A stretch of 47,132 nt of DNA from Chloroflexota bacterium. Its GTDB lineage: Bacteria; Chloroflexota; Limnocylindria; P2-11E. The notes below the pieces were generated by a model. It had not been told where the DNA came from and did not search any database. It saw nothing but the letters and a program-made list of their open reading frames with translations. The position numbers were made by a program, and so were the translations under genes. The stretch covers positions 1 to 47,132 of the forward strand of contig JACPEQ010000018.1 of the NCBI GenBank assembly GCA_016183435.1, in the 5' to 3' direction. This document shows, piece by piece, positions 2,992-41,598 of this stretch; within the stretch, counting starts at the first letter, position 1, and the number at the start of each line of letters is the position of its first letter.

Positions 2992-3639
2992 TCAGTCGCC
3001 ACGGAACAACCTGCCCGACTGAAGAGCGCCGCGCAGCCAGCCGAGCTCGTCGCCGATCGTCGTCGGCGGCCCGTGCCCGGGGTAGACGCGCGTCCGCGGT
3101 GGGAGCGCCGCGACCCGGCGCAGGCTCGCTTCCATCTGTCGCGGGTCGCCCCCGGGAAGGTCGACCCGCCCGACGTTGCCGCTGAACAGGACGTCGCCCG
3201 AGAAGAGGATCCCCTCGGCCGGCAGGTAGAAGCAGGTCGAGCCCTCGGTGTGGCCGGGGGTGTGGAGCGCCTGGACCTCCACGTCCGCGAGGTAGGTGAC
3301 CGGGCCTTCGTCGAGCAGGTCGTCCGGGACCGCTCGCGGCGCCGGAGGGAGGACGGACGCACCACCGGGCTTGCTGACGAGGTCCAGGCGATACGCGTCG
3401 AGCCGGTGGATCGCCAGCCGCGCGCGCGTCGCCTCCTTCACCGGCGCGTTCGCGTACACGTGGTCGGGATGGCCATGGGTGTTGAGGATCGCGAGCAGAC
3501 GCAGCCCGTTCTCACGCATCGCGCCCAGCACTTCCGCCTCCGCCATCGACGGGTCGATGAGGATCGCATCGCTCCGGTCGTCGACGAGGATGTAGACCCC
3601 GTTGTCGAACGGTGCGACACGAAAGGGCATCACCCGCAC
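2992..3639 (-). CDS. MBL-fold metallo-hydrolase (glyoxalase II-like)
   Basis: NTHGHPDHV (HxHxDH) motif and later HTPGHTEGS. Its stop lies 1 nt upstream of the GNAT start (coupled pair). Alternative ATG start at 3630. Confidence 0.85.
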   Translation of the reverse strand: MRVMPFRVAPFDNGVYILVDDRSDAILIDPSMAEAEVLGAMRENGLRLLAILNTHGHPDHVYANAPVKEATRARLAIHRLDAYRLDLVSKPGGASVLPPAPRAVPDDLLDEGPVTYLADVEVQALHTPGHTEGSTCFYLPAEGILFSGDVLFSGNVGRVDLPGGDPRQMEASLRRVAALPPRTRVYPGHGPPTTIGDELGWLRGALQSGRLFRGD

Positions 3640-5824: not shown

Positions 5825-5898
5825 GGCTGAGACGCTACGTCAGCCACGTGCTCCGCGCGCGCCCATATCGTGGACTGGTGGCCGAGAACGCTCCTCGG

Positions 5899-6648
5899 AT
5901 GGAGGACTCACGCGCGGAGCGCGATCTGCTCGTGATCGCGAAGGTCATCGGCTCGAGCGAGTTCCCGGTCGAGCGTCCGGCGATCGTCGGTGTCGACCGG
6001 GAGACCGGCGGGCTCCTCCGCCTCAGCCCGTTCCCGTGGAAGGGCGCCGACACGGACCCGCCGATCCAGAAGTGGTCCTGGCTCCACGCGGGCACGCGGG
6101 CCTCGGAGTACGACCCGCGGCCGGAATCGCGCGAGGTCGTTGGCGAGGTCACCGCCACCGCGTACGTCGACGCGAAGGAGGGCTGGCGGCTGCGGTGGCC
6201 GTTCGTGCGGCCGCATGTCGTCCGCTCGCTGGAGGACGCGCAGCAGCGGGCGCGGGATGGAGCGGGGACCGCCGCGTTCATCCGCCCCGCGACCGACGCC
6301 GACGTGATACAGCTGCCGCTGCGCCTCCGCTTCCGGTGCGACGACGAGGGCTGTTCGACATACCACGAGCTGCCGGTCCTCGACTGGGAGCTGCATCAGA
6401 TCGCCCGCGCGACGCGCGAGCGGTACGGGCCGCAGTGGGCCACGCAGTTCCGCCAGACCTGGGGCGCGCCGCTGTTCGAGCGCTACGACGTTCACGTGCT
6501 CGTCTCGACCTATGCGCAGGCGATCACGAGGCCGTACGTGGCCGGGCTGTTCTGCCCGCCCCGTGCCGGCGAGGACGCGCACGCCCACGCGCATCACGTC
6601 GAGCATCGGAGCCACTCCGTACCCCCTGGCGCGCAGACCGAGGCGTAG
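5899..6648 (+). CDS. hypothetical protein (249 aa) with Cys/His patch
   Basis: ATG at 5899 (MEDSRAERDLLVIAK...). The part of the track ORF upstream of 5899 overlaps the antisense gene. RFRCDDEGCSTYHELPVLDWELH patch. The last codons (PGAQTEA-stop) lie in repeat copy A. Confidence 0.6.
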   Translation: MEDSRAERDLLVIAKVIGSSEFPVERPAIVGVDRETGGLLRLSPFPWKGADTDPPIQKWSWLHAGTRASEYDPRPESREVVGEVTATAYVDAKEGWRLRWPFVRPHVVRSLEDAQQRARDGAGTAAFIRPATDADVIQLPLRLRFRCDDEGCSTYHELPVLDWELHQIARATRERYGPQWATQFRQTWGAPLFERYDVHVLVSTYAQAITRPYVAGLFCPPRAGEDAHAHAHHVEHRSHSVPPGAQTEA

Positions 6649-6703
6649 ACGAGGTCGAGCACCCGGGCCCGAGCGAGGGGTTCCCCCGAGCGAGGGTCGG
6701 ACC
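6623..6703 (+). repeat. GC-rich intergenic repeat family 1, copy A (short form)
   Basis: ccctggcgcgcagaccgaggcg...gaggtcgagcacccgggcccgagcgaggggttcccccgagcgagggtcgga. Alignable by eye to six other copies in the window. Confidence 0.9.
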
Positions 6704-7137
6704 TAGACCTTTCCGATCAGCTCCCTGGGGGCGTCGTGTCGCTCGCTGCCGATCTCGCTCTTCTTCCCGCGATAGCCGTGCGGGAAGATCCGCAGGAGCA
6801 GGTACGTCCCGGTGTTGGGATCCTCGGCGCGCTCGAGCACGAGCGACGGCCCCCACGGTGAGTCGAACGTGTCTCCGACCTCCGGCTTGGGCCGGCCCGG
6901 GTCGAAGCCCTGCCTGTCCCACTGGAGGACGGCGTAGCCGCGGACGATGCGCTCCTCCTCGCCGCCCTCGTCCGGACGCCACTGATGCGCTCCGGGATGC
7001 TCTCGCTGGCAGACCGCCGGCGAACCGGAGTGCATCGTCACCCATTTGTGCACGTCGGCGTCCTTCGACTGCGCACCCTGCGGGTACGCCTCGCGGTGGC
7101 GCGCCGCGCCCTCGCCGCAGAGGTAGTAGAAGAGCAC
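6703..7137 (-). CDS. hypothetical protein (about 144 aa)
   Basis: C-terminal part of ORF 6703..7947. Upstream of about 7140 that ORF is antisense to the hydrolase gene. In-frame GTG at 7137 (an ATG further in, at MHSGSP, is an alternative). High GC3, no family recognised. Confidence 0.5.
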   Translation of the reverse strand: MLFYYLCGEGAARHREAYPQGAQSKDADVHKWVTMHSGSPAVCQREHPGAHQWRPDEGGEEERIVRGYAVLQWDRQGFDPGRPKPEVGDTFDSPWGPSLVLERAEDPNTGTYLLLRIFPHGYRGKKSEIGSERHDAPRELIGKV

Positions 7138-7158
7138 GAGGGCATCATAGGTAGCGAC

Positions 7159-8157
7159 ATGGACGCGCGCACGATCCGGGTGGGTGGTCTGCGCGTCCGG
7201 GTGGTCGAGGTCGCGCCGCGTCGCGAGCGCGACGACCCCGTGTTCATGATCCACGGGCTCGGCGGATGGGCGGAGAACTGGCGCGAGATCATGCCGGCGG
7301 TCGCCGACAGCGGACGGCGCGCGATCGCGGTGGATCTCCCGGGATTCGGTGAGAGCGAGCGGCCGCGCCGCTCGCGCTACTTCGATCCGGAGAAGCCGTT
7401 CTACGCGCCGTTCGTGTTCGACACGCTCGACGCGCTCGGGATCGAGCACACGCACGTCGCCGGGCACTCGCTCGGCGGGGCCGTCGCGTACACCGCGGCG
7501 ATGTGGCGGCCCGACCGGGTGCGCTCGCTCACGCTCGCGGCGCCCGGGGGCCTGGGCAGGGAGATCGCCCGCGAGCTGCGCATCCTCACGCTGCCCGGGA
7601 TGGGCCTGCTCGCGCGGATCCGCCGGTCCGAGCGAGTGACGCGCCAGGTCCTGTATTCGTGCTTCCACGACCCGGCTCGGTGTCCCGAGCCGGTCGTCGC
7701 CGAGGCCATCAGGTACGGCGCGCCGGCGGCCCCGGAGATGGTCCGCGCGCTGCGGTCGGCCGTGACCTTCCGCGGCGGCGTTCGCGACGAGGTGCGCCTG
7801 CCCTGGATCGCACGCGCCGGACGGTACGGCGGCCCGGCGCTCATCCTGTGGGGCCGCGAGGATCGGATCCTGCCGGTGTCCCTCGTGGACGAGGCGCGCC
7901 GGATGGCCCCGCAAGCCGAGGTGCGGATCATCCCATCGTGCGGGCACCTGGTCATGGTCGAGCGGCCGCGCGAGATGCTCGATGCGCTCCTACCGTTCCT
8001 CGACCGCGCGGTGCGTCCCCCAGGCGCGCAGACCGAGGCGTGGTCCCCAGGCGCGCAGACCGAGGCGTGGTCCCCAGGCGCGCAGACCGAGACGCGAAGC
8101 GGCGAGGTCGAGCACCTGGGCGCGAGGGAGGGGTCCCCCCGACCGAGCGTCGGATGA
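7159..8157 (+). CDS. alpha/beta hydrolase
   Basis: ATG 7159 (MDARTIRVGG...). HGLGG oxyanion region, nucleophile elbow GHSLGG, C-terminal catalytic His in SCGHLVMVERP. The last 46 codons are encoded by repeat copy B. Confidence 0.85.
   Translation: MDARTIRVGGLRVRVVEVAPRRERDDPVFMIHGLGGWAENWREIMPAVADSGRRAIAVDLPGFGESERPRRSRYFDPEKPFYAPFVFDTLDALGIEHTHVAGHSLGGAVAYTAAMWRPDRVRSLTLAAPGGLGREIARELRILTLPGMGLLARIRRSERVTRQVLYSCFHDPARCPEPVVAEAIRYGAPAAPEMVRALRSAVTFRGGVRDEVRLPWIARAGRYGGPALILWGREDRILPVSLVDEARRMAPQAEVRIIPSCGHLVMVERPREMLDALLPFLDRAVRPPGAQTEAWSPGAQTEAWSPGAQTETRSGEVEHLGAREGSPRPSVG
8017..8155 (+). repeat. repeat family 1, copy B, head triplicated (3 x 27 nt)
   Basis: caggcgcgcagaccgag starts at 8021, 8048 and 8075 (period 27), followed by the usual gaggtcgagcacctggg...tcgga tail. 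Confidence 0.9.
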
Positions 8158-8236: not shown

Positions 8237-10654
8237 ATGAGGACGCGGTCCCGGCCGACCGTCCGAACGCCGGCCGGGCTCACGCTCACGGCCCAAGGGG
8301 TCCTCGCGGACTACCGCATCGCGGTCCGCAGCCGCGCCGCCAGCGTGATCGCCCGGCGGGAGGTCCTGACCGGCAAGGCCCCCTTCGGCATCTCGGGCGA
8401 GGGCAAGGAGGTCGCCCAGCTCGCGATGGCCAGGCAGTTCCGCGAGGGCGACTGGCGCTCCGGCTACTACCGGGATCAGACGTTCCACTTCGCCGCGGGG
8501 ATCGCGACGATCCCGCAGTACTTCGCGCAGCTCTACACGGACACGGAGCACGACCCTTTCTCCGCGGGGCGGCAGATGGTCAGCCACTTCGCGACGCGCA
8601 GCATCGACGCGGACGGCGAGTGGCTCCCGATCGCTCGCACGAAGAACAGCGCCGCCGACCTGTCGCCGGTGTCGGCGCAGCTCGGCCGGTCGCTCGGGCT
8701 CGCGTACGCGTCGAAGCTGTACCGGCGCCACGACGGCTTCAGCGGATACGGGCGGGGGAAACTCAGCGCCGACGGCGGGGAGGCGTGCTTCACGACCGTC
8801 GGGAACGCCGGCTGCGCGGAGGGGATCTTCTGGGAGGTCCTGAACGCCGCGGGCGTCCTGCAGGTCCCGCTCGCGATCTCCGTCTGGGACGACGGGTTCG
8901 GGATCTCGGTGCCGAACGACCTGCAGGTCACGAAGGGCTCGATCTCGGAGATCGTCCGCGGGTTCGCCCCGGCGAACGGCGTGCCCGGCGTCGACGTGCA
9001 CGTCGTCCGGGGGTGGGACTACCCCGCGCTCTGCGACACGTACGCGCTCGCGATCGAGAAGGTGCGCCGCGCGCACGCCCCGGCGCTCATCCACGTGACC
9101 GAGATGACGCAGCCGCAGGGACACTCCACCAGCGGCAGCCACGAGCGCTACAAGACGACGGAGCGGCTGCGGTACGAGACGGAGATGGACCCCATCGCCC
9201 GCATGCGCACGTGGATGATGCGCGAGGAGCTCGCGACCGCCGCCGAGCTCGACGACGCGGAGCGCGAGGACCGCCAGTACGTCGAGGGCGTCCGGGCCGA
9301 GGCCTGGCGCGCCTACTCGGAGCCGATCCTCGACGACCGCGAGCGAGTGGTGGCGCTGCTCGAGCGGGCCGCACGCGAGAGCGGGGTCGACGCGCTCGGC
9401 GCGCTCGCGCAGGGCCTCCGCGGCCAGGCCGAGCCGGGACGCCGCTTCGCGCACGTCGCGATCGCGACCGCGCTCCTCGAGCTCCGGGACCGCGACGTGC
9501 CGGTACGCCAGGAGCTGCGCGCCGCGCTGCGCACCCGCGAGGACGCGGACCGCGAGCGCTTCACGACGCACCTGTACAGCACGTCGGCCCGGTCGCCGCT
9601 CCGCGTGACCGAGACGGCGCCCGCGTACGCCGCCGATGCCGAACAGGCCGACGGACGCGTCGTCCTCGTTCGCTGCTTCGACGAGCTCCTGTCGCGCGAC
9701 CCGCGCGTGTTCGTCATCGGCGAGGACGTGGGCAAGCTCGGGGACGTGAACCTCGTGTTCGAGGGCCTGCAGCAGAAGCACGGCGACCTGCGTCTCACCG
9801 ACACCGGCATCCGCGAGGCGACGATCCTCGGGCAGGGCATCGGCGCGGCGATGCGCGGCCTGCGGCCGATCGTGGACATCCAGTACCTCGACTACCTGCT
9901 GTACGCGCTGCAGCTGGCGTCCGACGACCTTGCCACGCTGCGCTACCGCACCGCGGGCCGCCAGATGGCGCCGGTGGTCATCCGCACGAAGGGCCACCGT
10001 CTCCAGGGGATCTGGCACACGGGATCGCCGATGTCGCTGCTGCTCGGCTCGCTCGCCGGTGTCCGGATCTGCGTTCCGCGGAACATGACGCAGGCCGCGG
10101 GCATGTACAACACGCTCTTCGAGAGCGACGATCCGGCGCTCGTCATCGAGGTGCTCTCCGGCTACCGTCTGAAGGAGCGGATGCCCTCGAACATCGGGCA
10201 GATGCGCATCCCGCTCGGCGTGCCGGAGGTGATCCGACCGGGACGCGACCTCACCCTCGTGACGTACGGCGCGTGCTGCCGGTCCGCGCTCGAGGCGGCG
10301 ACGGAGCTCGCGACGCTCGGCGTGGAGGTCGAGGTGATCGACCTCCGGACGCTCGATCCGCTCGACCTGCGCGGTGTGATGGGCGCGTCGATCGAGCGCA
10401 CCGGGGCGCTCGTCGTCGTGGACGAGGACCTGCCGGGCGGCGCCTCGGCGCACATCCTTCGCCATGCGCTCGAGGTGCAGCGCGCGCAGGATCGGCTGGA
10501 GGTGCCGGCGCGCACGCTCACGGCGACCGCCAACCGGAGCCCGGTCGGGCAGGACGGCGACTTCTACACGAAGCCGAACACGACGGACATCGTCCGCGCG
10601 GCGTACGCCATCGCACGCGAGCGCGACCCGCGGCGCTTCGGGGAGGTCTGGTGA
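8237..10654 (+). CDS. 2-oxoacid dehydrogenase E1 component, fused alpha/beta subunits (TPP-dependent)
   Basis: 805 aa from ATG 8237. The N-terminal half is E1-alpha-like (GNAGCAEGIFWEVLNAAGVLQVPLAISVWDDGFGISVP). The C-terminal half is E1-beta/transketolase-like (FVIGEDVGKLGDVNLVFEGLQQKHG, DLRTLDPLD). Confidence 0.85.
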   Translation: MRTRSRPTVRTPAGLTLTAQGVLADYRIAVRSRAASVIARREVLTGKAPFGISGEGKEVAQLAMARQFREGDWRSGYYRDQTFHFAAGIATIPQYFAQLYTDTEHDPFSAGRQMVSHFATRSIDADGEWLPIARTKNSAADLSPVSAQLGRSLGLAYASKLYRRHDGFSGYGRGKLSADGGEACFTTVGNAGCAEGIFWEVLNAAGVLQVPLAISVWDDGFGISVPNDLQVTKGSISEIVRGFAPANGVPGVDVHVVRGWDYPALCDTYALAIEKVRRAHAPALIHVTEMTQPQGHSTSGSHERYKTTERLRYETEMDPIARMRTWMMREELATAAELDDAEREDRQYVEGVRAEAWRAYSEPILDDRERVVALLERAARESGVDALGALAQGLRGQAEPGRRFAHVAIATALLELRDRDVPVRQELRAALRTREDADRERFTTHLYSTSARSPLRVTETAPAYAADAEQADGRVVLVRCFDELLSRDPRVFVIGEDVGKLGDVNLVFEGLQQKHGDLRLTDTGIREATILGQGIGAAMRGLRPIVDIQYLDYLLYALQLASDDLATLRYRTAGRQMAPVVIRTKGHRLQGIWHTGSPMSLLLGSLAGVRICVPRNMTQAAGMYNTLFESDDPALVIEVLSGYRLKERMPSNIGQMRIPLGVPEVIRPGRDLTLVTYGACCRSALEAATELATLGVEVEVIDLRTLDPLDLRGVMGASIERTGALVVVDEDLPGGASAHILRHALEVQRAQDRLEVPARTLTATANRSPVGQDGDFYTKPNTTDIVRAAYAIARERDPRRFGEVW

Positions 10655-11637
10655 TGGTCGAGAAGACGAACGTGCAGGCGGTCCACGACACGCTGCTCGA
10701 GGAGTTCCGCCGCGACGACCGGGTCATGATCCTCGGCGAGGACGTCGGCAAGCGGGGCGGCGTCTTCCGCGTGACCGACGGGTTCATCGAGGAGTTCGGG
10801 CCGCACCGCGTCCTCGACATGCCGCTCGCCGAGGCGTCGATCGTCGGCGTCGCGATCGGGCTCGCGCTGGCGGGCTTCCGGCCGATCGCGGAGATGCAGT
10901 TCGCGGACTTCTCGACCCCCGCGTTCGATCAGATCGTGCAGGAGGCGGCGCGCATCCGGTATCGCTCCAACGGCCAATGGGGTGTCCCGATGGTCGTGCG
11001 CATGCCGTGGGGCGCCGGCGTGCGCGGTGCGCTGTACCACTCGCAGTCGGTCGAGGCGTTCTACGCGCACGTTCCGGGCCTCAAGGTCGTCGCCCCGAGC
11101 ACACCCGCGGACATCACCGGGATGCTGCGATCGGCGATCCGCGACCCCGACCCGGTGATCTTCCTGGAGCACAAGGCGACGTATCGTGCCGTCCGCGGGG
11201 ACGTGCCCGACGGCGATCAGACGATCCCGCTCGGCACCGCGGACCTCAAGCGCGAGGGGACCGACATCACCGTGTTCGCGTACGGGCTGATGCTGCACCA
11301 TTGCCTGAGGGCGGCGGAGACGCTGGCCGGGGAGGGGATCTCCGTCGCGGTGGTCGACGTGCGCAGCCTGCGTCCGCTGGACGCGGCAACGATCGTGCGC
11401 GAGGCGCGGAGGACGGGGAAGTGCCTCGTCGTCTACGAGGACAATCGGATGTTCGGTGCCGGCGCCGAGATCGCCGCGCTCATCGCCGAGGAGGCGTTCG
11501 ACGACCTCGACGCTCCGGTGATGCGGTACGGTGGACCGGAGTCACCCGCGACGCCGTTCAACAAGCCACAGGAAGACGCATTCATGCCGGATCCCGAGCG
11601 GATCGCGCAGAAGATGCGCGACCTCGCCGCGTACTAG
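10654..11637 (+). CDS. alpha-ketoacid dehydrogenase E1 subunit beta
   Basis: MVEKTNVQAVHDTLLEEFRRDDRVMILGEDVGKRGGVFRVTDGF, then VDVRSLRPLD. ATG 10654 overlaps the upstream TGA by 1 nt. It is the real part of track ORF 8620..11637. Confidence 0.9.
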   Translation: MVEKTNVQAVHDTLLEEFRRDDRVMILGEDVGKRGGVFRVTDGFIEEFGPHRVLDMPLAEASIVGVAIGLALAGFRPIAEMQFADFSTPAFDQIVQEAARIRYRSNGQWGVPMVVRMPWGAGVRGALYHSQSVEAFYAHVPGLKVVAPSTPADITGMLRSAIRDPDPVIFLEHKATYRAVRGDVPDGDQTIPLGTADLKREGTDITVFAYGLMLHHCLRAAETLAGEGISVAVVDVRSLRPLDAATIVREARRTGKCLVVYEDNRMFGAGAEIAALIAEEAFDDLDAPVMRYGGPESPATPFNKPQEDAFMPDPERIAQKMRDLAAY

Positions 11638-15484: not shown

Positions 15485-15766
15485 CTAGCCCGGCGGATCC
15501 AGGCTCGGCGGACGCTCCGGCTCCGCGCCCTCAGGCACGATCTGGCCGCTGGTCCCGTAGACCTTCTTGCGGCGTTTGCGCTTCTCGAACGGCGTGCGCA
15601 CGTCGAAGCCGAGCTGGAACTGCGTCGCGGCGTGCAGGAGCGCGTCCGGCGGCTCGAGGCCGGTCACCCGCACGAGGTCGTCGTAGAGACGGTCGAACCG
15701 CTCCTTGTCCTCGTCCGAGCGGACGACGTCGGGATACGCCGGCGCTCGTAGTCGGTCAGTCGGCAC
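15485..15766 (-). CDS. hypothetical protein (93 aa)
   Basis: In-frame GTG at 15766 overlaps the end of the GYD gene by 11 nt. Basic KRKRRKK patch. No family recognised. Confidence 0.45.
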   Translation of the reverse strand: MPTDRLRAPAYPDVVRSDEDKERFDRLYDDLVRVTGLEPPDALLHAATQFQLGFDVRTPFEKRKRRKKVYGTSGQIVPEGAEPERPPSLDPPG

Positions 15767-16061
15767 TGCGTCCCTTGCGCCCGATCGCGCGGATGAACGT
15801 CTCGACCGGCATGGCCGGGAGCGTCTCGATGTGCACCGTTCCACGCGCGCCGAGGTTCGCCGAGACCTTCGCGATGGTCTCGTTGTCCTTGGCTTCGACG
15901 ATGTTCACGAAGTCGTAGCGGCCCAGCGTCGCGTACTGCGCGACGATCCGGCAGCCGAGCGACTCGATCTCCCGGTTGACCTCCTTGATGCGGCGCGGGT
16001 TCGACTGGATCGTCTTGACGCCCGCGGACGTGACCCGGGTGAGCAGGACGTACGTCGCCAT
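15756..16061 (-). CDS. GYD domain-containing protein
   Basis: MATYVLLTRVTSAGVKTIQSNPRRIKEVNREIESLGCRIVAQYATLGRYDFVNIVEA matches the GYD family pattern. ATG 16061. Confidence 0.8.
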   Translation of the reverse strand: MATYVLLTRVTSAGVKTIQSNPRRIKEVNREIESLGCRIVAQYATLGRYDFVNIVEAKDNETIAKVSANLGARGTVHIETLPAMPVETFIRAIGRKGRSAD

Positions 16062-16102
16062 GTGCGCCTCCCTCGGCCGCCGTGCGGCGGCAGAATGAGG
16101 AT

Positions 16103-16432
16103 ATGCCGCGGTTCGCGCGCGACGAGGCCGAGGCGATACTCCCCAAGGTCGTGCCATACCTCGAGGACATCCACCGGCGGAAGCGGGCGTTCGATCGGAA
16201 CCCGACGGAGCCCCTCGCGGCCGAGATCCGCGCGCTGATCCGCTCGGTCGCGGAGATGGGCGTCGAGGTCAAGAGCCTCGACGACGGGCTGATCGACTTC
16301 CCGGCGGAGCGGCGCGGGCGTGAGATCTACCTGTGCTGGAAGCTCGGCGAGGGCGAACGGATCTCGTGGTGGCACGAGGTCGACACGGGCTTCGCCGGGC
16401 GACGCCCGATCACGGAGCTGTACGAGAACTGA
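16103..16432 (+). CDS. DUF2203 domain-containing protein
   Basis: EIYLCWKLGEGERISWWHEVDTGFAGRRPI is typical of DUF2203. ATG 16103. Confidence 0.7.
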   Translation: MPRFARDEAEAILPKVVPYLEDIHRRKRAFDRNPTEPLAAEIRALIRSVAEMGVEVKSLDDGLIDFPAERRGREIYLCWKLGEGERISWWHEVDTGFAGRRPITELYEN

Positions 16433-16464
16433 CGGCACGTCCCCTCTTGCGCCTGCGCAACGTG

Positions 16465-17376
16465 ATGCCGCATACATCTCCCATGGATCCAACGGAGCTC
16501 GCTTGGGCGGCAGGATTCTGGGATGGCGAAGGCTGGGCGAATCTCGTGCGCTGCGGACGCGGTGAACTGGTGCGACCGATGGGACGCATCAACCAGTCCG
16601 ATGTCCTGGGGGTCCCGGTAGCGCTCGCTCGATTCCGCAACGCGACCGGTCTCGGGACGGTCAGCGGTCCGCATCTCCAGAACGGACGCGAGCCGATCTA
16701 CCGATGGGTGATCTCCAGTCGGCCCGACGTGGAACGCCTTGGTCAGCTACTGGGTCCGTGGCTCGGGGACGTGAAGCGTCGTCAACTCGAGCAGTCGACC
16801 GGTGCTCGCCTGGAGCACGCCTCGTGGAGCGACCTCACGCCTAATGAGCGGCGCGCCTGGGGCGCTGGTCTGTGGGACGGCGAGGGATCTGTGTGCCTGC
16901 TGAGGCATCGAACTCACGACGGCTACTTCGTGCCGGAGGCCTCCGTCACGCAGTCATCGGATCAAGGTGTTCCCGAGGTGCTCATGAGGCTCGGGTCGAT
17001 CGGGCCGCCCGGCTTCGTCTACGGGCCGTTCCCTCAGGAGCAGCCGTACCTGCCCGTCTATCGCTGGAAGCTCTTCCGACTGCAGGAGATCCAAACCCTG
17101 CTCGGTCTCCTCAGGCCTTGGCTCGGTCCCGTGAAGATCGAACAGGCTGAGCACGTTGTCTCCGTTGTCGAAGCACAACTGAAGTTGCCGCGCGGGAATC
17201 CCGCGTGGGGATCGCACAAGACGCATTGCCTGCGAGGCCACGAATACGCGATCGCGCGTGTTCGCCCCTTCCGGGGACGAGGCACCAACGCCGACGCGCC
17301 TCGTGCGTCACATCAGTGTCTCGCGTGCGTGAGAGACGCGGCTCGTCGCCGGCGACAAGGAAAGAACGACGGCTGA
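16465..17376 (+). CDS. LAGLIDADG-type homing endonuclease-like protein with C-terminal Cys/His zinc-ribbon-like tail
   Basis: Two LAGLIDADG-like motifs: LAWAAGFWDGEGW and RAWGAGLWDGEGSV, about 125 aa apart. C-terminal HCLRGHEY...HQCLACV. GC visibly lower than the flanks. Confidence 0.7.
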   Translation: MPHTSPMDPTELAWAAGFWDGEGWANLVRCGRGELVRPMGRINQSDVLGVPVALARFRNATGLGTVSGPHLQNGREPIYRWVISSRPDVERLGQLLGPWLGDVKRRQLEQSTGARLEHASWSDLTPNERRAWGAGLWDGEGSVCLLRHRTHDGYFVPEASVTQSSDQGVPEVLMRLGSIGPPGFVYGPFPQEQPYLPVYRWKLFRLQEIQTLLGLLRPWLGPVKIEQAEHVVSVVEAQLKLPRGNPAWGSHKTHCLRGHEYAIARVRPFRGRGTNADAPRASHQCLACVRDAARRRRQGKNDG

Positions 17377-17408
17377 TGCCGCCGTCCTCGCTCACGTCGG
17401 TTCCGTGA

Positions 17409-17651
17409 CTACTTGTCGAAATAAACCTTGTTGATCTCGATGTAGTTCTTCCACTTCTCGGGCACGGCGTCCTCGGGGAAGATCGCGCTCACTGGACACA
17501 CTGACTCGCACGCACCGCAGTCGATGCATTCGTCGGGATGGATGAAGTACATCTTGTCCGCGTCCGTCGTATAGATACAGTCAACGGGACACACATCGAC
17601 GCATGAAGCGTCCTTCACATCGATGCACGGTTCCGTGATCACGTAGGTCAT
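17409..17651 (-). CDS. fdxA: 7Fe ferredoxin (3Fe-4S plus 4Fe-4S)
   Basis: [27 protein letters not shown]...[21 protein letters not shown]: Cx7Cx3CP plus CxxCxxCxxxCP. ATG 17651. Confidence 0.9.
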
Positions 17652-17723
17652 CTGAGCAGCACTCCCTCTATCACCCGCGGTGCGAGCGCGATCTCGGCGC
17701 AAGGCTATCATCGGCTCGCGTTC

Positions 17724-18086
17724 ATGTCAGACGAGACCACCGAGTTCCCATTCCCATTCGACGTCACCGACGAAGAGCGCGCGACCGCGCGCTCCGAGTT
17801 CGGCAAGTACGCGCGCATCGTTTCGGAGGACAAGGAGGCGATCCGCTTCGAAGGCAGGGCGCTCGGGAAGACCGGGCCGATCTGGCGCTTCCAGTACCTC
17901 CGCATGTACCGGCTGCACAAAGGGTTCCTCGTCGCGGGCCACGAGCTCCGCGAGGGCATCAAGGTCTTCCAGGCCGACTCGGCCGAGGCGCTCCCGCGAT
18001 GCTTCGAGCACGAAGGCGTGGCCGAGTTCATCGAGGACGAGCTGCGCTACCGCGGCGTGATCGGGAGCGAGCACGCCCGAGCCTGA
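17724..18086 (+). CDS. hypothetical protein (120 aa)
   Basis: ATG start, coherent coding bias, no motif recognised. Confidence 0.55.
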
Positions 18087-21724: not shown

Positions 21725-23122
21725 TCAGCCGCGGAACGTGGACCGCGTCTCGCCGCGCTCCTTGTTGAGCTTCCGGTTGAGGTGCAGTCCCTCGAGGATG
21801 AACTCGACGGCGGCGGCGATGGCGGCCTGGTTCCCCGTGGCGCCGAGCTTCGCGACGGCGCCCTTCATGCCCGGGATCTGCAGTGCCTGCTTCACGTACT
21901 CGGTGCTCGGCAGCGACGACGACACGTGCATCGTCGCGCCGCGCTGGAACGCGCCGAGCAGCGCGTCGAACTCGGCGAGCGCGAAGGTCCGGTTGAACAC
22001 GTTCAGCACCGCGCGCTGGGTGAGGCGCTCGATGACCCGCTCCTCGGAGGTCTCACCGACGGACTCGAGCTCGATCTTCCCGGCCGTCGATGCGACGACG
22101 GCGGGCAGGTCGCTGATCCGCGGCACGACCGCGTTCTCACCGAGCCGGAGCGCACGCTTCAGCGCGTTGGACACGAGGTTCTCGTAGTTCGCGATGGTCA
22201 CGCGCACGGAGACGCCCGACCGCTGCGAGATCTCGGGCGAGCGCCGGGCGAGGTGGGAGAGCTCGGCGAGGACCTCCTTCATGTATGCCGGGACGGTCGT
22301 GGTGATGCCCTCGTCGACGTACTCGGAGCGCTCCTGCTCCATGATCCCGACCTCGGTCCCGATCTCATGCGGGTAGTGCGTACGGATCTGCGAGCCGAAG
22401 CGGTCCTTGAGCGGCGTGATGATGCGCCCGCGGTTCGTGTAGTCCTCGGGGTTCGCGGAGGCGACGACGAAGAGATCGAGCGGGAGCCGGACCTTGTACC
22501 CGCGGATCTGCACGTCGCGCTCCTCCATCACGTTGAGGAGGCCGACCTGCACGCGCTCCGCGAGGTCGGGCAGCTCGTTCAGCGTGAAGACGCCGCGGTG
22601 CGTGCGCGGGAGGAGCCCGTAGTGGATGGTCATCTCGTCGGAGAGGTAGCGGCCCTCCGCGACCTTGATCGGGTCGACCTCGCCGATAAGATCGGCGATG
22701 GAGATGTCCGGCGTCGCGAGCTTCTCGGTGTAGCGGCGATCGGGCGTGAGCCATACGAGCTCGACGGCGTCGCCGTCGTTCGCGATGCGATACCGGCAGG
22801 AGGCGCAGATCGGATCGAACGGCTCATCGTTGATCTCGCATCCGGCGATCGCCGGCACGGCGGCGTCGAGGAGCGACACGAGCGAGCGCGCGATGCGCGT
22901 CTTCGCCTGTCCCCGCTCGCCGAGCAGGATGACGTCCTGCCCGGAGAGGATCGCGTTCTCGATCTGCGGGATCACGGTGGCCTCGTAGCCGACGATGCCC
23001 GGGAACAGGGGCCGGCCGTCGCCGAGCGCCGCGATGAGGTTCGCGCGCATCTCCTCCTTCACCGAGCGCGTGCGGTAGCCCGTCTCGCGGAGCGCGCCGA
23101 TGGTCGTCGGTCGGTCGTTCAT
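21725..23122 (-). CDS. ChlI/BchI-like AAA+ ATPase
   Basis: 465 aa. Walker A GERGQAKT, Walker B-like VFTLNELPD, sensor region VVASANPEDY. Cys cluster CEINDEPFDPICASC. ATGA overlap with the upstream gene. Confidence 0.85.
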   Translation of the reverse strand: MNDRPTTIGALRETGYRTRSVKEEMRANLIAALGDGRPLFPGIVGYEATVIPQIENAILSGQDVILLGERGQAKTRIARSLVSLLDAAVPAIAGCEINDEPFDPICASCRYRIANDGDAVELVWLTPDRRYTEKLATPDISIADLIGEVDPIKVAEGRYLSDEMTIHYGLLPRTHRGVFTLNELPDLAERVQVGLLNVMEERDVQIRGYKVRLPLDLFVVASANPEDYTNRGRIITPLKDRFGSQIRTHYPHEIGTEVGIMEQERSEYVDEGITTTVPAYMKEVLAELSHLARRSPEISQRSGVSVRVTIANYENLVSNALKRALRLGENAVVPRISDLPAVVASTAGKIELESVGETSEERVIERLTQRAVLNVFNRTFALAEFDALLGAFQRGATMHVSSSLPSTEYVKQALQIPGMKGAVAKLGATGNQAAIAAAVEFILEGLHLNRKLNKERGETRSTFRG

Positions 23123-24024
23123 GCCTTATTCCATCCCTTCGCTCGGGGGGATCCCTCGCCCTTCACGCTCTCTCCGCGCCGCGCGGCCACCGCGGCACGG
23201 ACCGCCGGGATGGCGAAGATGCCGCGTTCGCCGAGATCCCGCAGATACGCGGCACGGACGTCCAGCTCCGCGCGCAGCTCGCCGACGTGGCCGCCGCGCC
23301 GCGCGCGGAGCAGCTCGAGCTGTGCGCTCTCGTCGTGCTCGTGCGCGTCGCGGTCGCCGTCCCATCCCACCAGCGGGACCAGGCTCACGCCGCCGCGCAG
23401 GTCGGAGCTGAGCCGATGCGCGGACACGACGCGGCGGGCGATGGGACCGTACGCCGTTCCGACGCGATACATGCGCATCACGAGGAGCAGGTCCACCCGC
23501 GCGAGATCCTCGGCGTCGACGCCGAGCTCGCCGGTGAGCTGAGCGACGGCCTCCTCCGCGCTGTCCGCGTGCAGCGTGGAGGCGAGCGCGTATCCGCGCC
23601 CGAGCGTGTGGAAGACCTCCACCGCCTTCGATCCCCACAGGTAGACCGGGAGGTGGCTGGACAGCTCGTTCGCCAGCAGGAGCGTCCGCCGCGGGTCGGT
23701 GTGGCGCAGGAAGTCGAATGTCTCGGCCCAGCCGCGCACGAAAACGCGGCACACGTCGGCCGGGAGGAGATCGAGGAACGCCGTGAGCGTCGTCGTCTTG
23801 CCCGAGTGGGGCTGCTCCGCGGCGATGAGGATGGATCCGTGCGCCTCGAGCACGAGCCAGCAGAGCGCGGCGGTGCGTGCGTCGAAGTTGCCGGCGGCGA
23901 GGAGCTCGGTGATCGACATCGGGACCGGCGGCTCCCAGCTCCAGCCCCACCAGCCGATCGGGACGTCGTAGTCCTCGGCCGAGAGCGGTCGCTCGCGGAC
24001 CTGATACGAGCGCGGTGCCTCCAT
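23119..24024 (-). CDS. stand-alone VirB11/PilT/CpaF-like secretion-type ATPase core
   Basis: 301 aa. Walker A AEQPHSGKTTTL, Walker B-like TLLLANELS, His-box-like ASTLHADSAEEAVAQL. Confidence 0.7.
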   Translation of the reverse strand: MEAPRSYQVRERPLSAEDYDVPIGWWGWSWEPPVPMSITELLAAGNFDARTAALCWLVLEAHGSILIAAEQPHSGKTTTLTAFLDLLPADVCRVFVRGWAETFDFLRHTDPRRTLLLANELSSHLPVYLWGSKAVEVFHTLGRGYALASTLHADSAEEAVAQLTGELGVDAEDLARVDLLLVMRMYRVGTAYGPIARRVVSAHRLSSDLRGGVSLVPLVGWDGDRDAHEHDESAQLELLRARRGGHVGELRAELDVRAAYLRDLGERGIFAIPAVRAAVAARRGESVKGEGSPRAKGWNKA

Positions 24025-25865: not shown

Positions 25866-25950
25866 TCCCCCGGGCGCGCAGACCGAGACGCGAAGCGGCG
25901 AGGTCGAGCACCTGGGCCTGAGCGAGGGGTCTCCCCGAGCGAGGGTCGGA
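25866..25950 (+). repeat. repeat family 1, copy C (short form)
   Basis: tcccccgggcgcgcagaccgagacgcgaagcggcgaggtcgagcacctgggcctgagcgaggggtctccccgagcgagggtcgga. Confidence 0.9.
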
Positions 25951-27053: not shown

Positions 27054-28469
27054 TTACGAAGCGGATCTGGAGCGGCCTCCCAACGTCTCGCCTCGCTCTT
27101 CCGAAGCGTACTTGGCGAGGGCCCGGTCGAGCACCTCGACGATGTGCAGCACCGGCAGGTCGCTACCACGTGCCTTCAGCCCCGACGCGATCTGCAGCAT
27201 GCATCCCGGGTTCGCGCTGACGACGGCGTCCGCCTTCGTCGAGAGGATCGCCGCGACCTTGGAGGCCTGGAGCGCGTCGGCGTAGGCGGGCTGAGTCACG
27301 TTGTAGGTGCCGGCGCTGCCACAGCACACGTCGGCCTGCGGCATCTCGACGAGGTCGAGTCCTTCGACCCGGCGCAGGAGCGAGCGCGGCTGTGTCCGGA
27401 TGCCCTGCGCGTGCGCGAGGTGACAGGCGTCCTGATAAGTGACCCGCATCCGCAGGCGCCCGAGCGTCGCCGGCAGGTCGGTCGCCGCGAGTTGTTCGCT
27501 CACGTCGCGCACGTTCGCGGCCATCGCCGCGGCGCGCTCACGCCACGCGGGATCGTCCGCGAGCAGCTCGCCCCAGCCCCTCATGTGCGCGCCGCAGCCT
27601 GCGGCGTCGACGACGATCGCGTCGACGTTCGCGCGCTCGAACGCCGCGATGCCGCGGCGCGCGAGTCCGCGAGCGGCGTCGCGGTCTCCGGCGTGCGCGT
27701 GGAGCGCGCCGCAGCAGGCCTGGTCGGGCACATCGACGATCTCGTACCCGAACCGCACCAGGACGCGCGCCGCGGCCGTGTGCACGTCGCCGTACGCCAC
27801 GCGCATCACGCAGCCGAGCAGCAGCGCCACCCGCGCGTGGGGCGCCGGCGGCGGCGCGGGCGCGCGGTATCGCGGACGCGTGAGCGGCGGGTACATCGCC
27901 TCGAGCCGCCGCAGCCGCGACGGCAGAGCGCGCACGAGGCCCGTCGCGTGGAGCAGGCGCCGGATCCCGAGCCGTTCGTAGAGCGATGTGATGCGTGCGA
28001 CGAGATCGAGCACGCGCGGGCGCGCGACGACGCCGCGCAGCAGGATGTCGCGCAGGCGGGACCGCGGCGCGCAAGCGGTGAGCTCGCCGTGTGCGAGCTC
28101 GATGAGACGGCCGTACGGGACGCCGGAGGGGCACGCGGCCTCGCAGGCGCGGCAGCCGAGGCAGCGGTCCAGATGCACGGACACGCTCGGGGTCGGCTCG
28201 ATGCGGCCCTTGGCCAGCGCGTCCATGAGATGGATGCGGCCGCGCGGCGACTCCGTCTCGAGCCCCGTGAGCAGGTACGTGGGGCAGGCCTGCAGGCACA
28301 TCCCGCAGCGGATGCACTGCTGCAGCGCGTCCAGTCCGACCCTCAGCCGGGCAAAGCCCTCCTTCGGGCCCAGGGGTAGGGGCCCCTGTGCGCGAAGCGC
28401 GTGCTCGACCTCGCCGGTTCGGCCCTGCCTCACCGCCTCGGTCTGCGCGCCCAGGGGACGCGCGCTCAC
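27054..28469 (-). CDS. glcF: glycolate oxidase iron-sulfur subunit GlcF
   Basis: CIRCGMCLQACP and CLGCRACEAACP ferredoxin-type motifs plus two CCG domains (QACCGA, DVCCGSAG). The only in-frame starts upstream of the first Cys motif are GTG 28469 (GTGA overlap with the glcE stop) and GTG 28433. Both make the N-terminus repeat-encoded. Confidence 0.85.
   Translation of the reverse strand: MSARPLGAQTEAVRQGRTGEVEHALRAQGPLPLGPKEGFARLRVGLDALQQCIRCGMCLQACPTYLLTGLETESPRGRIHLMDALAKGRIEPTPSVSVHLDRCLGCRACEAACPSGVPYGRLIELAHGELTACAPRSRLRDILLRGVVARPRVLDLVARITSLYERLGIRRLLHATGLVRALPSRLRRLEAMYPPLTRPRYRAPAPPPAPHARVALLLGCVMRVAYGDVHTAAARVLVRFGYEIVDVPDQACCGALHAHAGDRDAARGLARRGIAAFERANVDAIVVDAAGCGAHMRGWGELLADDPAWRERAAAMAANVRDVSEQLAATDLPATLGRLRMRVTYQDACHLAHAQGIRTQPRSLLRRVEGLDLVEMPQADVCCGSAGTYNVTQPAYADALQASKVAAILSTKADAVVSANPGCMLQIASGLKARGSDLPVLHIVEVLDRALAKYASEERGETLGGRSRSAS
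28334..28460 (-). repeat. repeat family 1, copy D (long form), embedded between glcE and the conserved part of glcF
   Basis: The reverse complement reads cgtcccctgggcgcgcagaccgaggcg...gaggtcgagcacgcgcttcgcgcacaggggcccc...ggctgagggtcgga. It shares the long-form insert with copy G. Confidence 0.85.
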
Positions 28470-33999: not shown

Positions 34000-34109
34000 C
34001 TGCGCGGGTCGAGCAGGACCAGCAGCGCCGTGGTGATGAACAGCACCAGCGCCACCATCGCCACGAACGCCAAGACGTTCCAGCGGAACGTCGGGCCGCG
34101 CGAAGTCAC
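33915..34109 (-). CDS. small membrane protein (64 aa) coupled to parB
   Basis: GTG 34109 overlaps the parB TAG by 1 nt. One clear TM segment (VLAFVAMVALVLFITTALLVLL). Strong GC3. Confidence 0.5.
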   Translation of the reverse strand: MTSRGPTFRWNVLAFVAMVALVLFITTALLVLLDPRSQAWWGDRFSELGTFVRALVDAVVNRPS

Positions 34110-35056
34110 TAGCTCGTGCTGCGGATACGGGCGACGAGATTGTCCAGGCGGGCGCGCGAGATGGTGAGGAACTTCGCCAGGTTCTGACGGTCGCCGTCGG
34201 GCACATCGGCCGCCGCGTCCACCGCGCCGGCCAGCTCCATGAGCGCCTCGTTCAGCTTGCGCGTCGCCAGGATCATCGCGTCATCCCGCAGGGCCGGCGT
34301 CTGGTCCTCTTCCTTGTCTTCCCTCGGCGGGCGCCCGACCGGGTCCAGGATGCGCTCTACCCGCTCGTGCAGCCTCAGGAGCGTCATCTCGCCGGAGAGC
34401 ACCCGCTTGACCAGCGCCCGGCGCTTGCGCTTGTCGTCGAGCTTCATCAGCTCGTACGCGTGCGTGATGGTGTCGTAGCGCTGGGCGACCATCTCCTTGA
34501 CGTCGTCGGGCGCGTTCGCGAGGCGAAGGCGGTTCTCGACGTAGCCCTTGTCCTTGCCGAGCTTCCCGGCGAGCCCGCGGATCGAGTACCCGAGCTCGGT
34601 CGTCATCTTGTTGTAGATGAAGGCCTCGTCGAGCGGCGAGAGATCCTCGCGCTGGAGGTTCTCGATGAGCGCGATCTCGAGGGCCGTCGCGTCGTCGAAG
34701 CGCTCGACGATCGCGGGGATCGTCTCGCGCTTCGCCATCTTGGAGGCGCGCCAGCGGCGCTCGCCGGCGATGAACTCGTAGCTCTCGCCGGCGGCGGGAC
34801 GGACGAGGATCGGCTGCAGCACGCCGTGCTCGGTGATCGAGGCGGCGAGCTCCTTGAGCGTCTCCTCGTGCCACGTCATGCGCGGCTGCGATGGGTTCGG
34901 CTGGATCTTGTCGACGGGGATGTCGCGCACCGCGGTCGGCGCGCGCGAGGCCAGCAGGCGGATGATCCCGTTCTGCGGATCCGCCTGCTCCTGCTGGAAG
35001 ATGCGGCTGCCGGCGTCGCGGAAGGACTTCGAGCGCGAGCGCTCGCTAGTGAGCAT
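34109..35056 (-). CDS. parB: ParB/Spo0J family partition protein
   Basis: IPVDKIQPNPSQPR, HGVLQPILVR, IAGERRWRA, ENLQREDLSPLDEA. ATG 35056 overlaps the parA end by 11 nt. Confidence 0.9.
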   Translation of the reverse strand: MLTSERSRSKSFRDAGSRIFQQEQADPQNGIIRLLASRAPTAVRDIPVDKIQPNPSQPRMTWHEETLKELAASITEHGVLQPILVRPAAGESYEFIAGERRWRASKMAKRETIPAIVERFDDATALEIALIENLQREDLSPLDEAFIYNKMTTELGYSIRGLAGKLGKDKGYVENRLRLANAPDDVKEMVAQRYDTITHAYELMKLDDKRKRRALVKRVLSGEMTLLRLHERVERILDPVGRPPREDKEEDQTPALRDDAMILATRKLNEALMELAGAVDAAADVPDGDRQNLAKFLTISRARLDNLVARIRSTS

Positions 35057-35825
35057 TCGCCACCTCCTTCGCGAGGTCCATGAAGCTCTTCGCGGCGTCC
35101 GACCGCGCGTCATACGTCGTGATGGGCACGCCCGCCGTGGGCGCTTCGCCGATCTTCACCGACTGCCGGATGACCGTGCGGAAGACCTGGTGGTCACCGA
35201 GGTCCTTCAGCGAGTCGAGCATGTCGCGCGCGAGGATCGTGCGGCTGTCGTAGAAGGTCGGCAGGAGCCCGAGCACCTGCAGCCGCGGGTTCAGCCGGGT
35301 CTGCACGGTCTTGATGATCTTCAGCAGCGCCGCGACGCCCTTCAGGGCGTAGTACTGCGTCTGCACCGGGATGATCACGCCGTCGGCCGCGACGAGCGCG
35401 TTCAGCGTGAGCAGCCCCAGCGTGGGCGGGCAGTCGATGAGGATGTGCGAGTAGCGGTCGATGACGTCGGCGGTCAGCTTGTCGCGCAGGGCCAGCTCGC
35501 GACCGATCGCCGTCATGAGCTCGACCTCCGCGGACGACAGCTCGATCGTGGTCGGCGCGGCGTCGAGGTTCTTCGTCTTGGTCGCGCGGATGACGGACAT
35601 GAGCGGGACGTCGGACTCGACCATGACCTGCGCCATGCCGTGCTCGACGCTGTTGAGGTCGATGCCGAGCCCGACGGTCAGGTTGCCCTGCGGATCGAGG
35701 TCGATGCAGAGGACCCGGTGGCCCATCGCTGCGAGCGCGCCACCGAGGTTGATGGCGCACGTCGTCTTGCCGACGCCGCCTTTTTGGTTCGCGATCGCGA
35801 TGATGCGTCCCAAGGCGCCTCCCAT
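35046..35825 (-). CDS. parA: ParA family partition ATPase
   Basis: Deviant Walker A IAIANQKGGVGKTT, and CIDLDPQGNLT. ATG 35825. Confidence 0.9.
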   Translation of the reverse strand: MGGALGRIIAIANQKGGVGKTTCAINLGGALAAMGHRVLCIDLDPQGNLTVGLGIDLNSVEHGMAQVMVESDVPLMSVIRATKTKNLDAAPTTIELSSAEVELMTAIGRELALRDKLTADVIDRYSHILIDCPPTLGLLTLNALVAADGVIIPVQTQYYALKGVAALLKIIKTVQTRLNPRLQVLGLLPTFYDSRTILARDMLDSLKDLGDHQVFRTVIRQSVKIGEAPTAGVPITTYDARSDAAKSFMDLAKEVANAH

Positions 35826-35917
35826 GGCGAGACTTCCGTGACCGTCTCCCCATGGCGCGTGGAAGCGGCGCGCCTCGGTCCCTGCGGGAACTATACGCGA
35901 CAATAGGTAGTGAGACG

Positions 35918-35989
35918 CGGCCGGTAGCTCAGTGGCAGAGCGGCAAACTCATAATTTGCTGGTCCCAGGTTCGATCCCTGGCCGGCCGA
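35918..35989 (+). tRNA. tRNA-Met (anticodon CAT), elongator type
   Basis: Cloverleaf by hand: acceptor CGGCCGG/CCGGCCG, D arm GCTC-AGTGGCA-GAGC, anticodon arm GCAAA-CTCATAA-TTTGC, T arm CCAGG-TTCGATC-CCTGG. C1-G72 is paired and the anticodon stem has no GGG/CCC, so it is not an initiator. tRNA-Ile2 (lysidine) cannot be excluded. No CCA encoded. Confidence 0.85.
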
Positions 35990-38203: not shown

Positions 38204-38288
38204 TCCGACCCCCGCTCGGGGGGACCCCTTGCTCGGGCCCGGGTGCTCGACCTCGTCGCTGTGCGCCTCGGTCTGCGCGCCCCGGGGT
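38204..38288 (-). repeat. repeat family 1, copy E (short form)
   Basis: The reverse complement reads taccccggggcgcgcagaccgaggcgcacagcgacgaggtcgagcacccgggcccgagcaaggggtccccccgagcgggggtcgga. Confidence 0.9.
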
Positions 38289-38719: not shown

Positions 38720-38762
38720 GACCCTCGTCGCTGCGGCGCCTCGCTCTGCGCGCCCGGGGAAC
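38720..38762 (-). repeat. repeat family 1, copy F (head-only fragment)
   Basis: The reverse complement ccgttccccgggcgcgcagagcgaggcgccgcagcgacgagggtcc matches only the 5' half of the element. Confidence 0.7.
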
Positions 38763-38792
38763 GGACCTGGCCTGAACAACGAGGAGGATCTG

Positions 38793-41489: not shown

Positions 41490-41598
41490 TCCCGGGCGCG
41501 CAGACCGAGGCGCGAAGCGACGAGGTCGAGCGCGCTTCGCGCACAGGGGCTCCCATCCCTGGAGCCCGAGCGAGGGGTTCCCCCGAGCGAGGGTCGGG
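41490..41598 (+). repeat. repeat family 1, copy G (long form)
   Basis: tcccgggcgcgcagaccgaggcgcgaagcgacgaggtcgagcgcgcttcgcgcacaggggctccc...cccgagcgaggggttcccccgagcgagggtcggg. Contains a 10-bp inverted repeat GCGCGAAGCG/CGCTTCGCGC. Confidence 0.9.

Follow-up and report, generated by a model that had tools for sequence, protein, structure and literature searches.

What is the GC-rich repeat that recurs about once every 7 kbp in a stretch of DNA from an uncultured Limnocylindria bacterium, and how does it reach the sites at which it lies? The repeat was recognised in a 47,132-nt stretch of a Chloroflexota metagenome-assembled genome (contig JACPEQ010000018.1 of assembly GCA_016183435.1, positions 1–47,132; hereafter the window), where an initial annotation made from the DNA letters alone had aligned seven copies of it. 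The element is mobile, with copies gained or lost at particular sites from one genome to a related one, and selection keeps a strand-specific fold of two hairpins on one of its DNA strands. With a probability of about 0.5, it is a non-autonomous mobile element that is moved as single-stranded DNA by a HUH/Y1 transposase acting in trans, in the manner of IS200/IS605 or REP-like elements, the transposase being the putative part of this reading. Related loci from genomes and metagenomes are referred to by number (L024, L037 and so on).

Copies of the repeat in the window

Significant copies were called with a covariance model built from related copies, in a scan with filters off and at E<0.01. 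The model returns exactly seven sites in the window and no others, and they are the seven that had been aligned initially; an independent repeat search of the window also recovers the family. The 18-nt head motif GGCGCGCAGACCGAGGCG, with at most one mismatch, is present at nine sites (6628, 8023, 8050, 8077, 25873 and 41495 on the plus strand; 28451, 38281 and 38754 on the minus strand) compared with 1.4 expected, and none of 100 shuffles reaches nine. The tail motif CCCGAGCGAGGGTCGGA occurs six times.

Six of the copies are full and one consists of a head only; truncated heads arrayed in tandem and a decayed eighth copy are also present. The array, at site B, has a period of 27 nt and 2.7 copies with 100% matches, and is followed by one full copy. 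Both orientations are represented, as described initially, with four copies on the plus strand and four (three significant copies and the remnant) on the minus strand. The short form is ~85 nt and long forms are 110–130 nt, a distinction that holds on reading the individual copies: copies D and G contain the extra module GCGCTTCGCGC followed by CAGGGG..CCCCTG, and copy D has an enlarged hairpin-1 tip as well.

A two-hairpin fold on one strand

The strand on which the repeat was first written folds consistently into two imperfect hairpins, which in the reference copy C span positions 25869–25916 (hairpin 1) and 25917–25945 (hairpin 2). Hairpin 1 contains an outer stem CCCNGG/CCNGGG, then GC/GC with an internal loop, and then a core, GACC-GA-G-(G·A)-CGC-GNA-GCG-C-GA-GGTC. 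Hairpin 2, CCC-GA-NN-GA-GGGG-TYC-CCCC-GA-NN-GA-GGG, is a continuous 13-position helix in which the GA/GA positions are opposed as tandem purine-purine mismatches. The sequence CCGAGCGAGGG does occur twice in the tail, as the initial annotation reported; the two occurrences are the arms of this hairpin with its two tandem G·A mismatches and not a direct repeat. By inspection, the hairpin-1 core and hairpin 2 are built alike (GC stem, tandem GA, 1–2 bp, GA, GC stem, triloop) and have nearly the same 3′ arm, CGAGG(G)TCG, in direct orientation.

The loops are mostly 3 nt long. The tip of hairpin 1 is usually C-GNA-G, where N is A, T, C or G, and is enlarged in some copies; hairpin 2 usually ends in a T-rich triloop. 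The d(GCGAAGC) and related GNA triloops form exceptionally stable DNA mini-hairpins and tandem sheared G·A pairs are stable in single-stranded DNA, while structured RNAs favour GNRA or UNCG tetraloops. In long forms, two more hairpins separate hairpin 1 from hairpin 2, a small one of GCGC-TTC-GCGC and a second of CAGGGG-N5/6-CCCCTG; the stem of the second covaries, reading TGGGGG/CCCCCA in L127 and L128.

Selection keeps this strand-specific fold. Covariation had been proposed as a test when the repeat was first described, and it is strong. With the structure defined by hand, 70 aligned short forms contain 146 double-change cells, compared with 51.6±5.1 in shuffles (0/500) and 12–60 when the pairing partners are slid. 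In a model-based alignment of 101 distinct copies, compensatory changes are found in 19 of 28 pairs (12.9±1.2 in shuffles, 0/500; 6–11 with slid partners) and double-change cells number 224 (73.6±5.9 in shuffles, 0/500; at most 58 when slid). The middle 2 bp of hairpin 2, for example, are GC/GC in 36 copies and GG/CC in 25, with the flanking GA..GA fixed, and in a few copies (L208, L165 and L193) Watson-Crick pairs take the place of the GA·GA mismatches. One G·A position in hairpin 1 is G·A in 72 of 92 copies, A·G in 14 and otherwise in six. The invariance of the inner part of hairpin 1 is uninformative because these positions were fixed by the search pattern; copies found only with the profile have compensated changes there (e.g. 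GGCC/GGCC in L037:3495), as does column pair 24/91. The two strands are not equivalent, the structure pairs including 38 of G·U type versus 16 A·C, and the mismatches 375 G·A or A·G versus seven C·T. A candidate helix closing the extreme ends of the element (GTCC/GGA) was dropped for lack of covariation, with double changes in 0/3 pairs.

Gene contexts were taken from a crude gene caller based on GC at third codon positions, with orthologous duplicates partly removed, and the counts are approximate: 54 copies are in sense orientation between tandem genes, 30 are antisense between tandem genes (~36% of the tandem cases), 19 lie between divergent genes and four between convergent genes. Among model-aligned copies, the proportion of structure positions kept is 0.963 in sense copies (n=43) and 0.948 in antisense copies (n=27). 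The fold is thus kept whether or not the structured strand is transcribed, which favours a requirement at the level of DNA over a function in host mRNA.

Gain and loss at individual sites

A systematic flank search yields at least 14 independent pairs of filled and empty sites with flanks that are 75–90% identical. The window itself has copies at sites that are empty in syntenic loci 77–88% identical to it (Table 1). In the cleanest pair (L202:11890 and L227) the insertion is exactly CCCC…GGG, between pre-existing AACGGTA and TCTC, and in the pairs L164/L201 and L090/L234 the empty sites already contain CGTC. A left-flank motif, SGT(C/A), precedes nearly every copy; it was there before insertion in the three empty sites that can be read cleanly (L227, L201 and L234) and is thus the target at least in some cases. 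There is no consistent target duplication among the filled and empty pairs, the L120/L169 site being the sole possible case, with TAG.

A single spacer shared by L128 and L220 contains elements of different subtypes in opposite orientation, which are independent insertions. The family further includes copies reduced to a head or to a tail, one with an internal deletion (L169) and heads in tandem. A search of the source metagenomes for excision variants found no empty site of the same strain, only a different strain that does not have copy B.

The element also occurs in both orientations in the divergent spacer between thyA and a second gene (gene Y), with L203:430-830 and L187:2200-2598 opposite to L181:1840-2240 and L191:450-850. 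The tail GGA-ATG is fused each time to the start codon of the gene that it faces, and ~12 nt of 5′ flank, GAGAC(A)CTATGG, moves along with the element. Either the whole spacer was inverted between the start codons or there were two independent insertions.

Table 1. Positions of the repeat copies and related features in the window, with the state of the same sites in related loci.
Feature	Position	Strand	Location	Related loci
Copy A, short form, minimal hairpin-1 tip C-GTA-G	6620..6703	+	Between convergent genes	Present in L126; absent from L159
Tandem array, two truncated heads, 27-nt unit CCCCAGGCGCGCAGACCGAGGCGTGGT	8018..8071	+	Directly upstream of copy B	
Copy B, short form	8072..8155	+	Read through as C-terminal extension of alpha/beta-hydrolase ORF 6985..8157	Absent from syntenic L159 and L126
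Decayed remnant, hairpin-2 half only	23124..23160	-	Within last ~15 codons of ORF 23119..24024 (-)	Full copy at the same junction in syntenic L134 (L134:6043-6131)
Copy C, short form, reference copy	25866..25950	+	Between amidase and Cu/Zn superoxide dismutase genes	Absent from syntenic L134
Copy D, long form	28334..28460	-	glcE/glcF junction, in frame with glcF-like ORF from GTG 28469	Orthologous short form in L024/L134/L150/L177
Copy E, short form	38204..38288	-	Antisense to flanking APH-like gene and RNase P RNA gene	
Copy F, head only (hairpin-1 5′ part), E = 0.008	38720..38764	-	Between RNase P RNA and CHRD lipoprotein genes	
Copy G, long form	41490..41598	+	Between ABC-2 permease and acetyl-CoA synthetase genes	
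ORF, open reading frame.

Distribution of the family

The initial view of an abundant, dispersed family is upheld by further copies in Chloroflexota genomes and in groundwater and soil metagenomes. A head-only scan of a genome collection gives complete elements in only five loci among the matches listed (L024, L037, L075, L090 and L101), all of them metagenome-assembled genomes of Chloroflexota/Candidatus Limnocylindria. The 18-nt head is too unspecific as a sole query, most of its at least 115 matches being chance single matches in GC-rich genomes. A two-part pattern finds at least 120 stretches in a metagenome collection (groundwater, vadose zone and soil) with genuine copies in all those listed, and these provide 92 distinct instances of the element among the matches listed.

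The window sequence itself is present in four groundwater metagenomes, in which the summed contig depth of the element is ~25–50 times that of its flanks. Contigs matching the element part from the window before 6622/6623 and after 6700–6702, at the edges of copy A, and continue from these points into many different flanks. If the window is representative, its ~7-kb spacing would extrapolate to several hundred copies per genome.

No match was found in plasmid and phage collections with a BLAST search of one copy, or in viral contigs with a pattern scan. At gathering thresholds, an Rfam scan of the window identifies RNase P RNA and tRNA only, and at E≤10 the copies have only chance matches to eukaryotic long non-coding RNA and microRNA models. 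Full-text literature searches for the core sequence and for repeats of Limnocylindria gave nothing relevant. The family is restricted to the Limnocylindria-type lineage of Chloroflexota and, by these Rfam, plasmid, phage, viral and literature searches, is a previously undescribed one; the initial annotation, too, had recognised no described family.

Effects on genes and reading frames

All copies were initially placed at gene boundaries. This holds within the window, and fails elsewhere, where copies lie in frame inside genes. That the element is absorbed into open reading frames (ORFs) is borne out: inspection shows no closed frame among the six of the consensus, and flanking ORFs read through it. 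At copy A, the upstream ORF (5848..6648) enters the element by nine codons and ends with the TAG of the hairpin-1 tip, displacing the native stop of the gene, which in L159, without the element, ends VEHWKHR*. The hydrolase at copy B gains about 45 residues. The glcF frame, if read from a GTG overlapping the glcE stop (GTGA), runs through copy D, whose long-form module adds 27 nt and keeps the frame, again by inspection.

The glcF-like gene of L024 has an ATG directly after the element tail, where the window has CTG; the sole in-frame start of the window gene is GTG 28469, which would make the whole 127-nt element an N-terminal extension.

Insertions within genes are found in related loci. The UvrC gene of L235 (2827-4836, minus strand) contains an element at 3304-3395 that adds 31 residues in frame, RPPGAQTEAPQRRGRAPGPEGGVPPTEGRNE, at positions 480-511 of the protein and inside a UvrC_RNaseH_dom match spanning 411-603; the orthologue in L210 has no element. 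An Fe-S oxidoreductase of L128 contains one in frame at residues 750-787 and another at its C-terminus, and in L164 a copy lies just past a start codon. All seven translated copies (A, B, D, L235, the two of L128, and L164) share one frame, ..CCC CCG GGC GCG CAG ACC GAG.. (PPGAQTE). The other sense frames are strongly arginine-rich, and the single frame therefore probably reflects a survival filter.

The element also appears to contribute start signals. An ATG directly follows GGTCGGA(A) in 18 of 91 distinct 3′ flanks, with GAGG ~6 nt upstream (by inspection), and several of these tail-fused ATGs are the start codons of the next gene (copA-like, tsaD, a response regulator, etfB and thyA). Comparison of L188 with L205 shows the element tail visibly taking the place of a native ribosome-binding site.

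Mode of movement and alternative explanations

Hairpins on one strand near both ends, the lack of terminal inverted repeats and of target duplication, the left-flank motif and a fold that is independent of transcription together form the signature of the HUH/Y1 ‘peel and paste’ mechanism. PMC3201880, PMC5934647 and PMC5027513 describe IS200/IS605 transposition as proceeding through a single strand, which is excised: the Y1 transposase TnpA recognises imperfect palindromes lying subterminally, cleavage takes place at a distance from these palindromes, and the target is a specific tetranucleotide. REP/REPIN-RAYT systems also use a HUH/Y1 single-strand mechanism (PMC3116915 and PMC3337134). By analogy, the element would move as single-stranded DNA, and an enzyme encoded in trans and resembling IS200/IS605 TnpA or RAYT would recognise its left end by one hairpin and its right end by the other. 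The structured strand would be cut out by this enzyme and joined to the 3′ side of an SGT(C/A) target, with no duplication of the target. Copies would then survive at sites where the damage is small. Between the genes of an operon, the purine-rich tail, GAGG..GGA(ATG), may stand in for a ribosome-binding site and start codon, and the TAG at the tip of hairpin 1 may stand in for a stop codon.

Miniature derivatives of IS200/IS605 share with the element the absence of terminal inverted repeats and of consistent duplications, two similar same-strand hairpins towards the ends, a strand-specific constraint and, apparently, a short specific sequence retained at the left flank. They differ in that neither a TnpA nor a full-length parent of the element is found in the loci scanned, and no pairing between guide and cleavage site was identified in it; moreover, its hairpins use tandem G·A mismatches and GNA triloops, with the left hairpin enclosed in an extra outer stem.

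Several observations sit poorly with this mode of movement. Pfam searches of about 50 genes reveal no transposase in the window, in agreement with the initial annotation, and motif scans (HUH and a Y..NP regular expression) of ~1 Mb of related loci find no Y1/HUH, RAYT- or IS200-type transposase, although these loci come from many genomes in which the gene would be single-copy. Orientation along the contig is not uniform, being mixed in the window and in L135, L188 and L202, and fits ill with the strict replication-linked (lagging-strand) bias reported for IS200/IS605. Several empty sites show no such motif at the left flank and have a few bases replaced, and TAG lies on both sides of the element in two filled sites, L120 and L169. 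Folding energies, calculated with RNA and DNA parameters for both strands, are no better than those of shuffles (z from +1.9 to -2.7); they are uninformative at 72% GC and were excluded as evidence for that reason. Finally, in 32 pairs of orthologous filled sites the element is 87.3% identical, compared with 86.3% for the mostly coding flanks. A neutral spacer should diverge faster, so selection, gene conversion or re-insertion must hold the copies; this coding-like conservation is the main observation that purely selfish DNA leaves unexplained, and hints at host constraint or gene conversion.

Conservation of this kind is one of the points in favour of a host-selected, cis-acting structured RNA (an operon-junction module, an mRNA stabiliser, or a provider or occluder of ribosome-binding sites) for which mobility is only the route of spread. 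The G·A-rich hairpins would then form an RNA structure bound by a protein or by the ribosome; in RNA, too, tandem G·A is typical of protein-binding motifs. The predominance of sense over antisense copies in tandem contexts (54 versus 30) and of divergent, 5′ positions over convergent ones (19 versus four), the fusion of the tail to ATG in 18/91 flanks, with GAGG ~6 nt upstream, and an element-bearing contig in an aquifer metatranscriptome point the same way. However, 27 of 70 copies in tandem contexts are antisense to both neighbours with the fold equally kept, close relatives lack the copy at the same junction while the genes persist, and some copies lie within coding regions. The hairpins are not followed by a T-run (by inspection), so they are not intrinsic terminators; the functions of neighbouring genes are unrelated, Rfam provides no match, and the loops are of 3 nt and not the usual GNRA or UNCG tetraloops. 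A structured RNA is accordingly disfavoured and is an unlikely account of the family.

A reading closer to single-strand transposition by an IS200/IS605-like enzyme is a population of repetitive extragenic palindromic (REP) or REPIN type, kept by a single-copy domesticated RAYT through the same HUH chemistry and inherited vertically over long periods, and not derived from an IS. REP, BIME and REPIN sequences of Enterobacteria and Pseudomonas are likewise abundant, mostly extragenic and GC-rich, contain imperfect palindromes with a short motif 5′ of the hairpin (here GT[C/A]C, adjoining the foot of the hairpin), form mosaic, partial and tandem arrangements, and are confined to one lineage; the absence of the element from the plasmids, phages and viral contigs searched fits with this. 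Copies of the element are also kept at orthologous sites across genomes that are ~80–88% identical, and such persistence is described for REPIN populations (e.g. 10.1101/2021.07.10.451892). Nevertheless, its hairpins are direct and non-identical, with neither an inverted doublet nor a REPIN-like dimer (a partial inverted head occurs once, beside a full copy in L139), the flanking motif is SGT(C/A)C and not the GTAG box (GTAC occurs in a minority), the unit is 85–130 nt with two hairpins, in-frame copies within genes are frequent, which is atypical of REPs, and the same regular-expression scan (HUH and Y..NP) of related loci reveals no RAYT-like ORF. A REPIN-type origin is therefore rather improbable.

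Least probable is a classical miniature inverted-repeat transposable element (MITE), moved by a DDE transposase acting on short terminal inverted repeats and duplicating a TA or TAG target. Its case consists of weak complementarity between the ends (by inspection, 5′ CCGTCCC and 3′ GGGTCGG, 7 nt with a central mismatch), of the TAG on both sides in L120 and L169 with a single TAG in the empty L147, and of the stop-like CTA/TAG strings common near both ends. These strings are there because adjacent genes end, most filled and empty pairs have no duplication, and the ends have no real terminal inverted repeats, as noted initially, their imperfect 7-nt complementarity going with a putative closing helix in which 0/3 pairs covary; a strand-asymmetric G·A fold would also be unexpected if the ends were recognised as double-stranded DNA. 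MITEs such as Correia, ERIC, RUP and BOX resemble the element in being short, non-coding, high in copy number and located at gene junctions, where they may supply expression signals and be co-transcribed, but they have terminal inverted repeats with TA-type duplications or a recognisable DDE IS origin and the element has neither. The initial annotation was thus right to set the repeat apart from classical MITEs; its suggestion of a REP/BIME-type or structured-RNA element is not supported, the defining features of REP, BIME and REPIN (GTAG box and inverted REP pairs) being absent as well and RNA disfavoured.

It is also doubtful, at much the same level as the REPIN-type origin, that the element is a domesticated strand-specific module built on tandem sheared G·A pairs, whether a substrate of a new HUH clade living long-term with Limnocylindria or a portable junction cassette that serves the host as a structured RNA or a protein-bound motif. 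Such a module would account for the coding-like evolution of orthologous copies, the fusion of tail and start codon, and the single translated frame; in its RNA- or protein-bound version, the cassette would supply the host with ribosome-binding site, start and stop signals.

Whatever moves it, the element is a hairpin-dependent, non-autonomous bacterial repeat that is unusual in its G·A-studded hairpins, translation in a single frame, supply of starts and stops, and coding-like conservation. In behaviour it resembles the Rickettsia palindromic elements (RPE), structured repeats of ~100–150 bp that insert in frame in unrelated protein genes and are tolerated as extra peptides (PMC10969869); the counterparts here are the in-frame insertions in the UvrC endonuclease domain, the Fe-S oxidoreductase, GlcF and the hydrolase C-terminus, which carry the RPE phenomenon into another phylum. 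The host phyla are unrelated, and copies of the present element are mostly intergenic.

Although common in groundwater, soils and lakes, Limnocylindria are uncultured, and almost nothing of their mobile DNA has been charted. With about one copy per 7 kb and six open frames, the repeat will mislead gene calling by extending proteins falsely at the N- or C-terminus, fusing ORFs and giving odd starts, and it will break assemblies at each copy, as in Logan contigs. The covariation provides a precise structure, and the natural filled, empty, inverted, truncated and in-frame sites make the family a test case for hairpin-dependent mobility.

Genomic context of the window

The window has a GC content of 70–73% and contains ordinary chromosomal genes, including those for aldehyde:ferredoxin oxidoreductase, 2-oxoacid dehydrogenase E1/E2, LipA/LipB, GlcDEF, MoaDE, ParAB, CysK, acetyl-CoA synthetase and FabH, as well as RNase P RNA and tRNA-Met. 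The full-length gene for RNase P RNA of bacterial class A (38310-38612, plus strand; 193.7 bits) lies between two antisense copies of the element, with copy E 21 nt upstream and the head-only copy F about 110 nt downstream. Contigs from metatranscriptomes match the RNase P RNA and a single foreign copy of the element, too sparsely for transcript ends to be defined; those on the RNase P RNA begin at 38309, placing copy E outside the mature RNA. A 199-nt contig from aquifer metatranscriptome run X15 matches window positions 38209-38259 and has other flanks, showing that another copy of the family is present in that metatranscriptome, at a depth of 2 that makes DNA carry-over possible.

The GC content falls to about 0.65 at 16001-18000, and there are few confident genes at ~15500-17400, where no ORF has a Pfam match other than a DUF2203 gene. 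A small RNase H gene (36957-37367, plus strand) scores best with RVT_3 (‘reverse transcriptase-like’); it has no reverse transcriptase domain and is unlinked to the repeat. At 8237-11637 (plus strand) the E1 alpha (E1_dh) and E1 beta (Transket_pyr and Transketolase_C) parts of a 2-oxoacid dehydrogenase are joined in a single ORF of 805 residues, which is followed directly by a separate E1 beta-like gene, the two beta parts being the direct repeats D9 and D11, 1016 nt apart. A ParB and ParA (AAA_31/CbiA) gene pair (34109-35903, minus strand) adjoins tRNA-Met(CAT) (35918-35990, plus strand), suggesting that the window may be near the chromosomal origin region.

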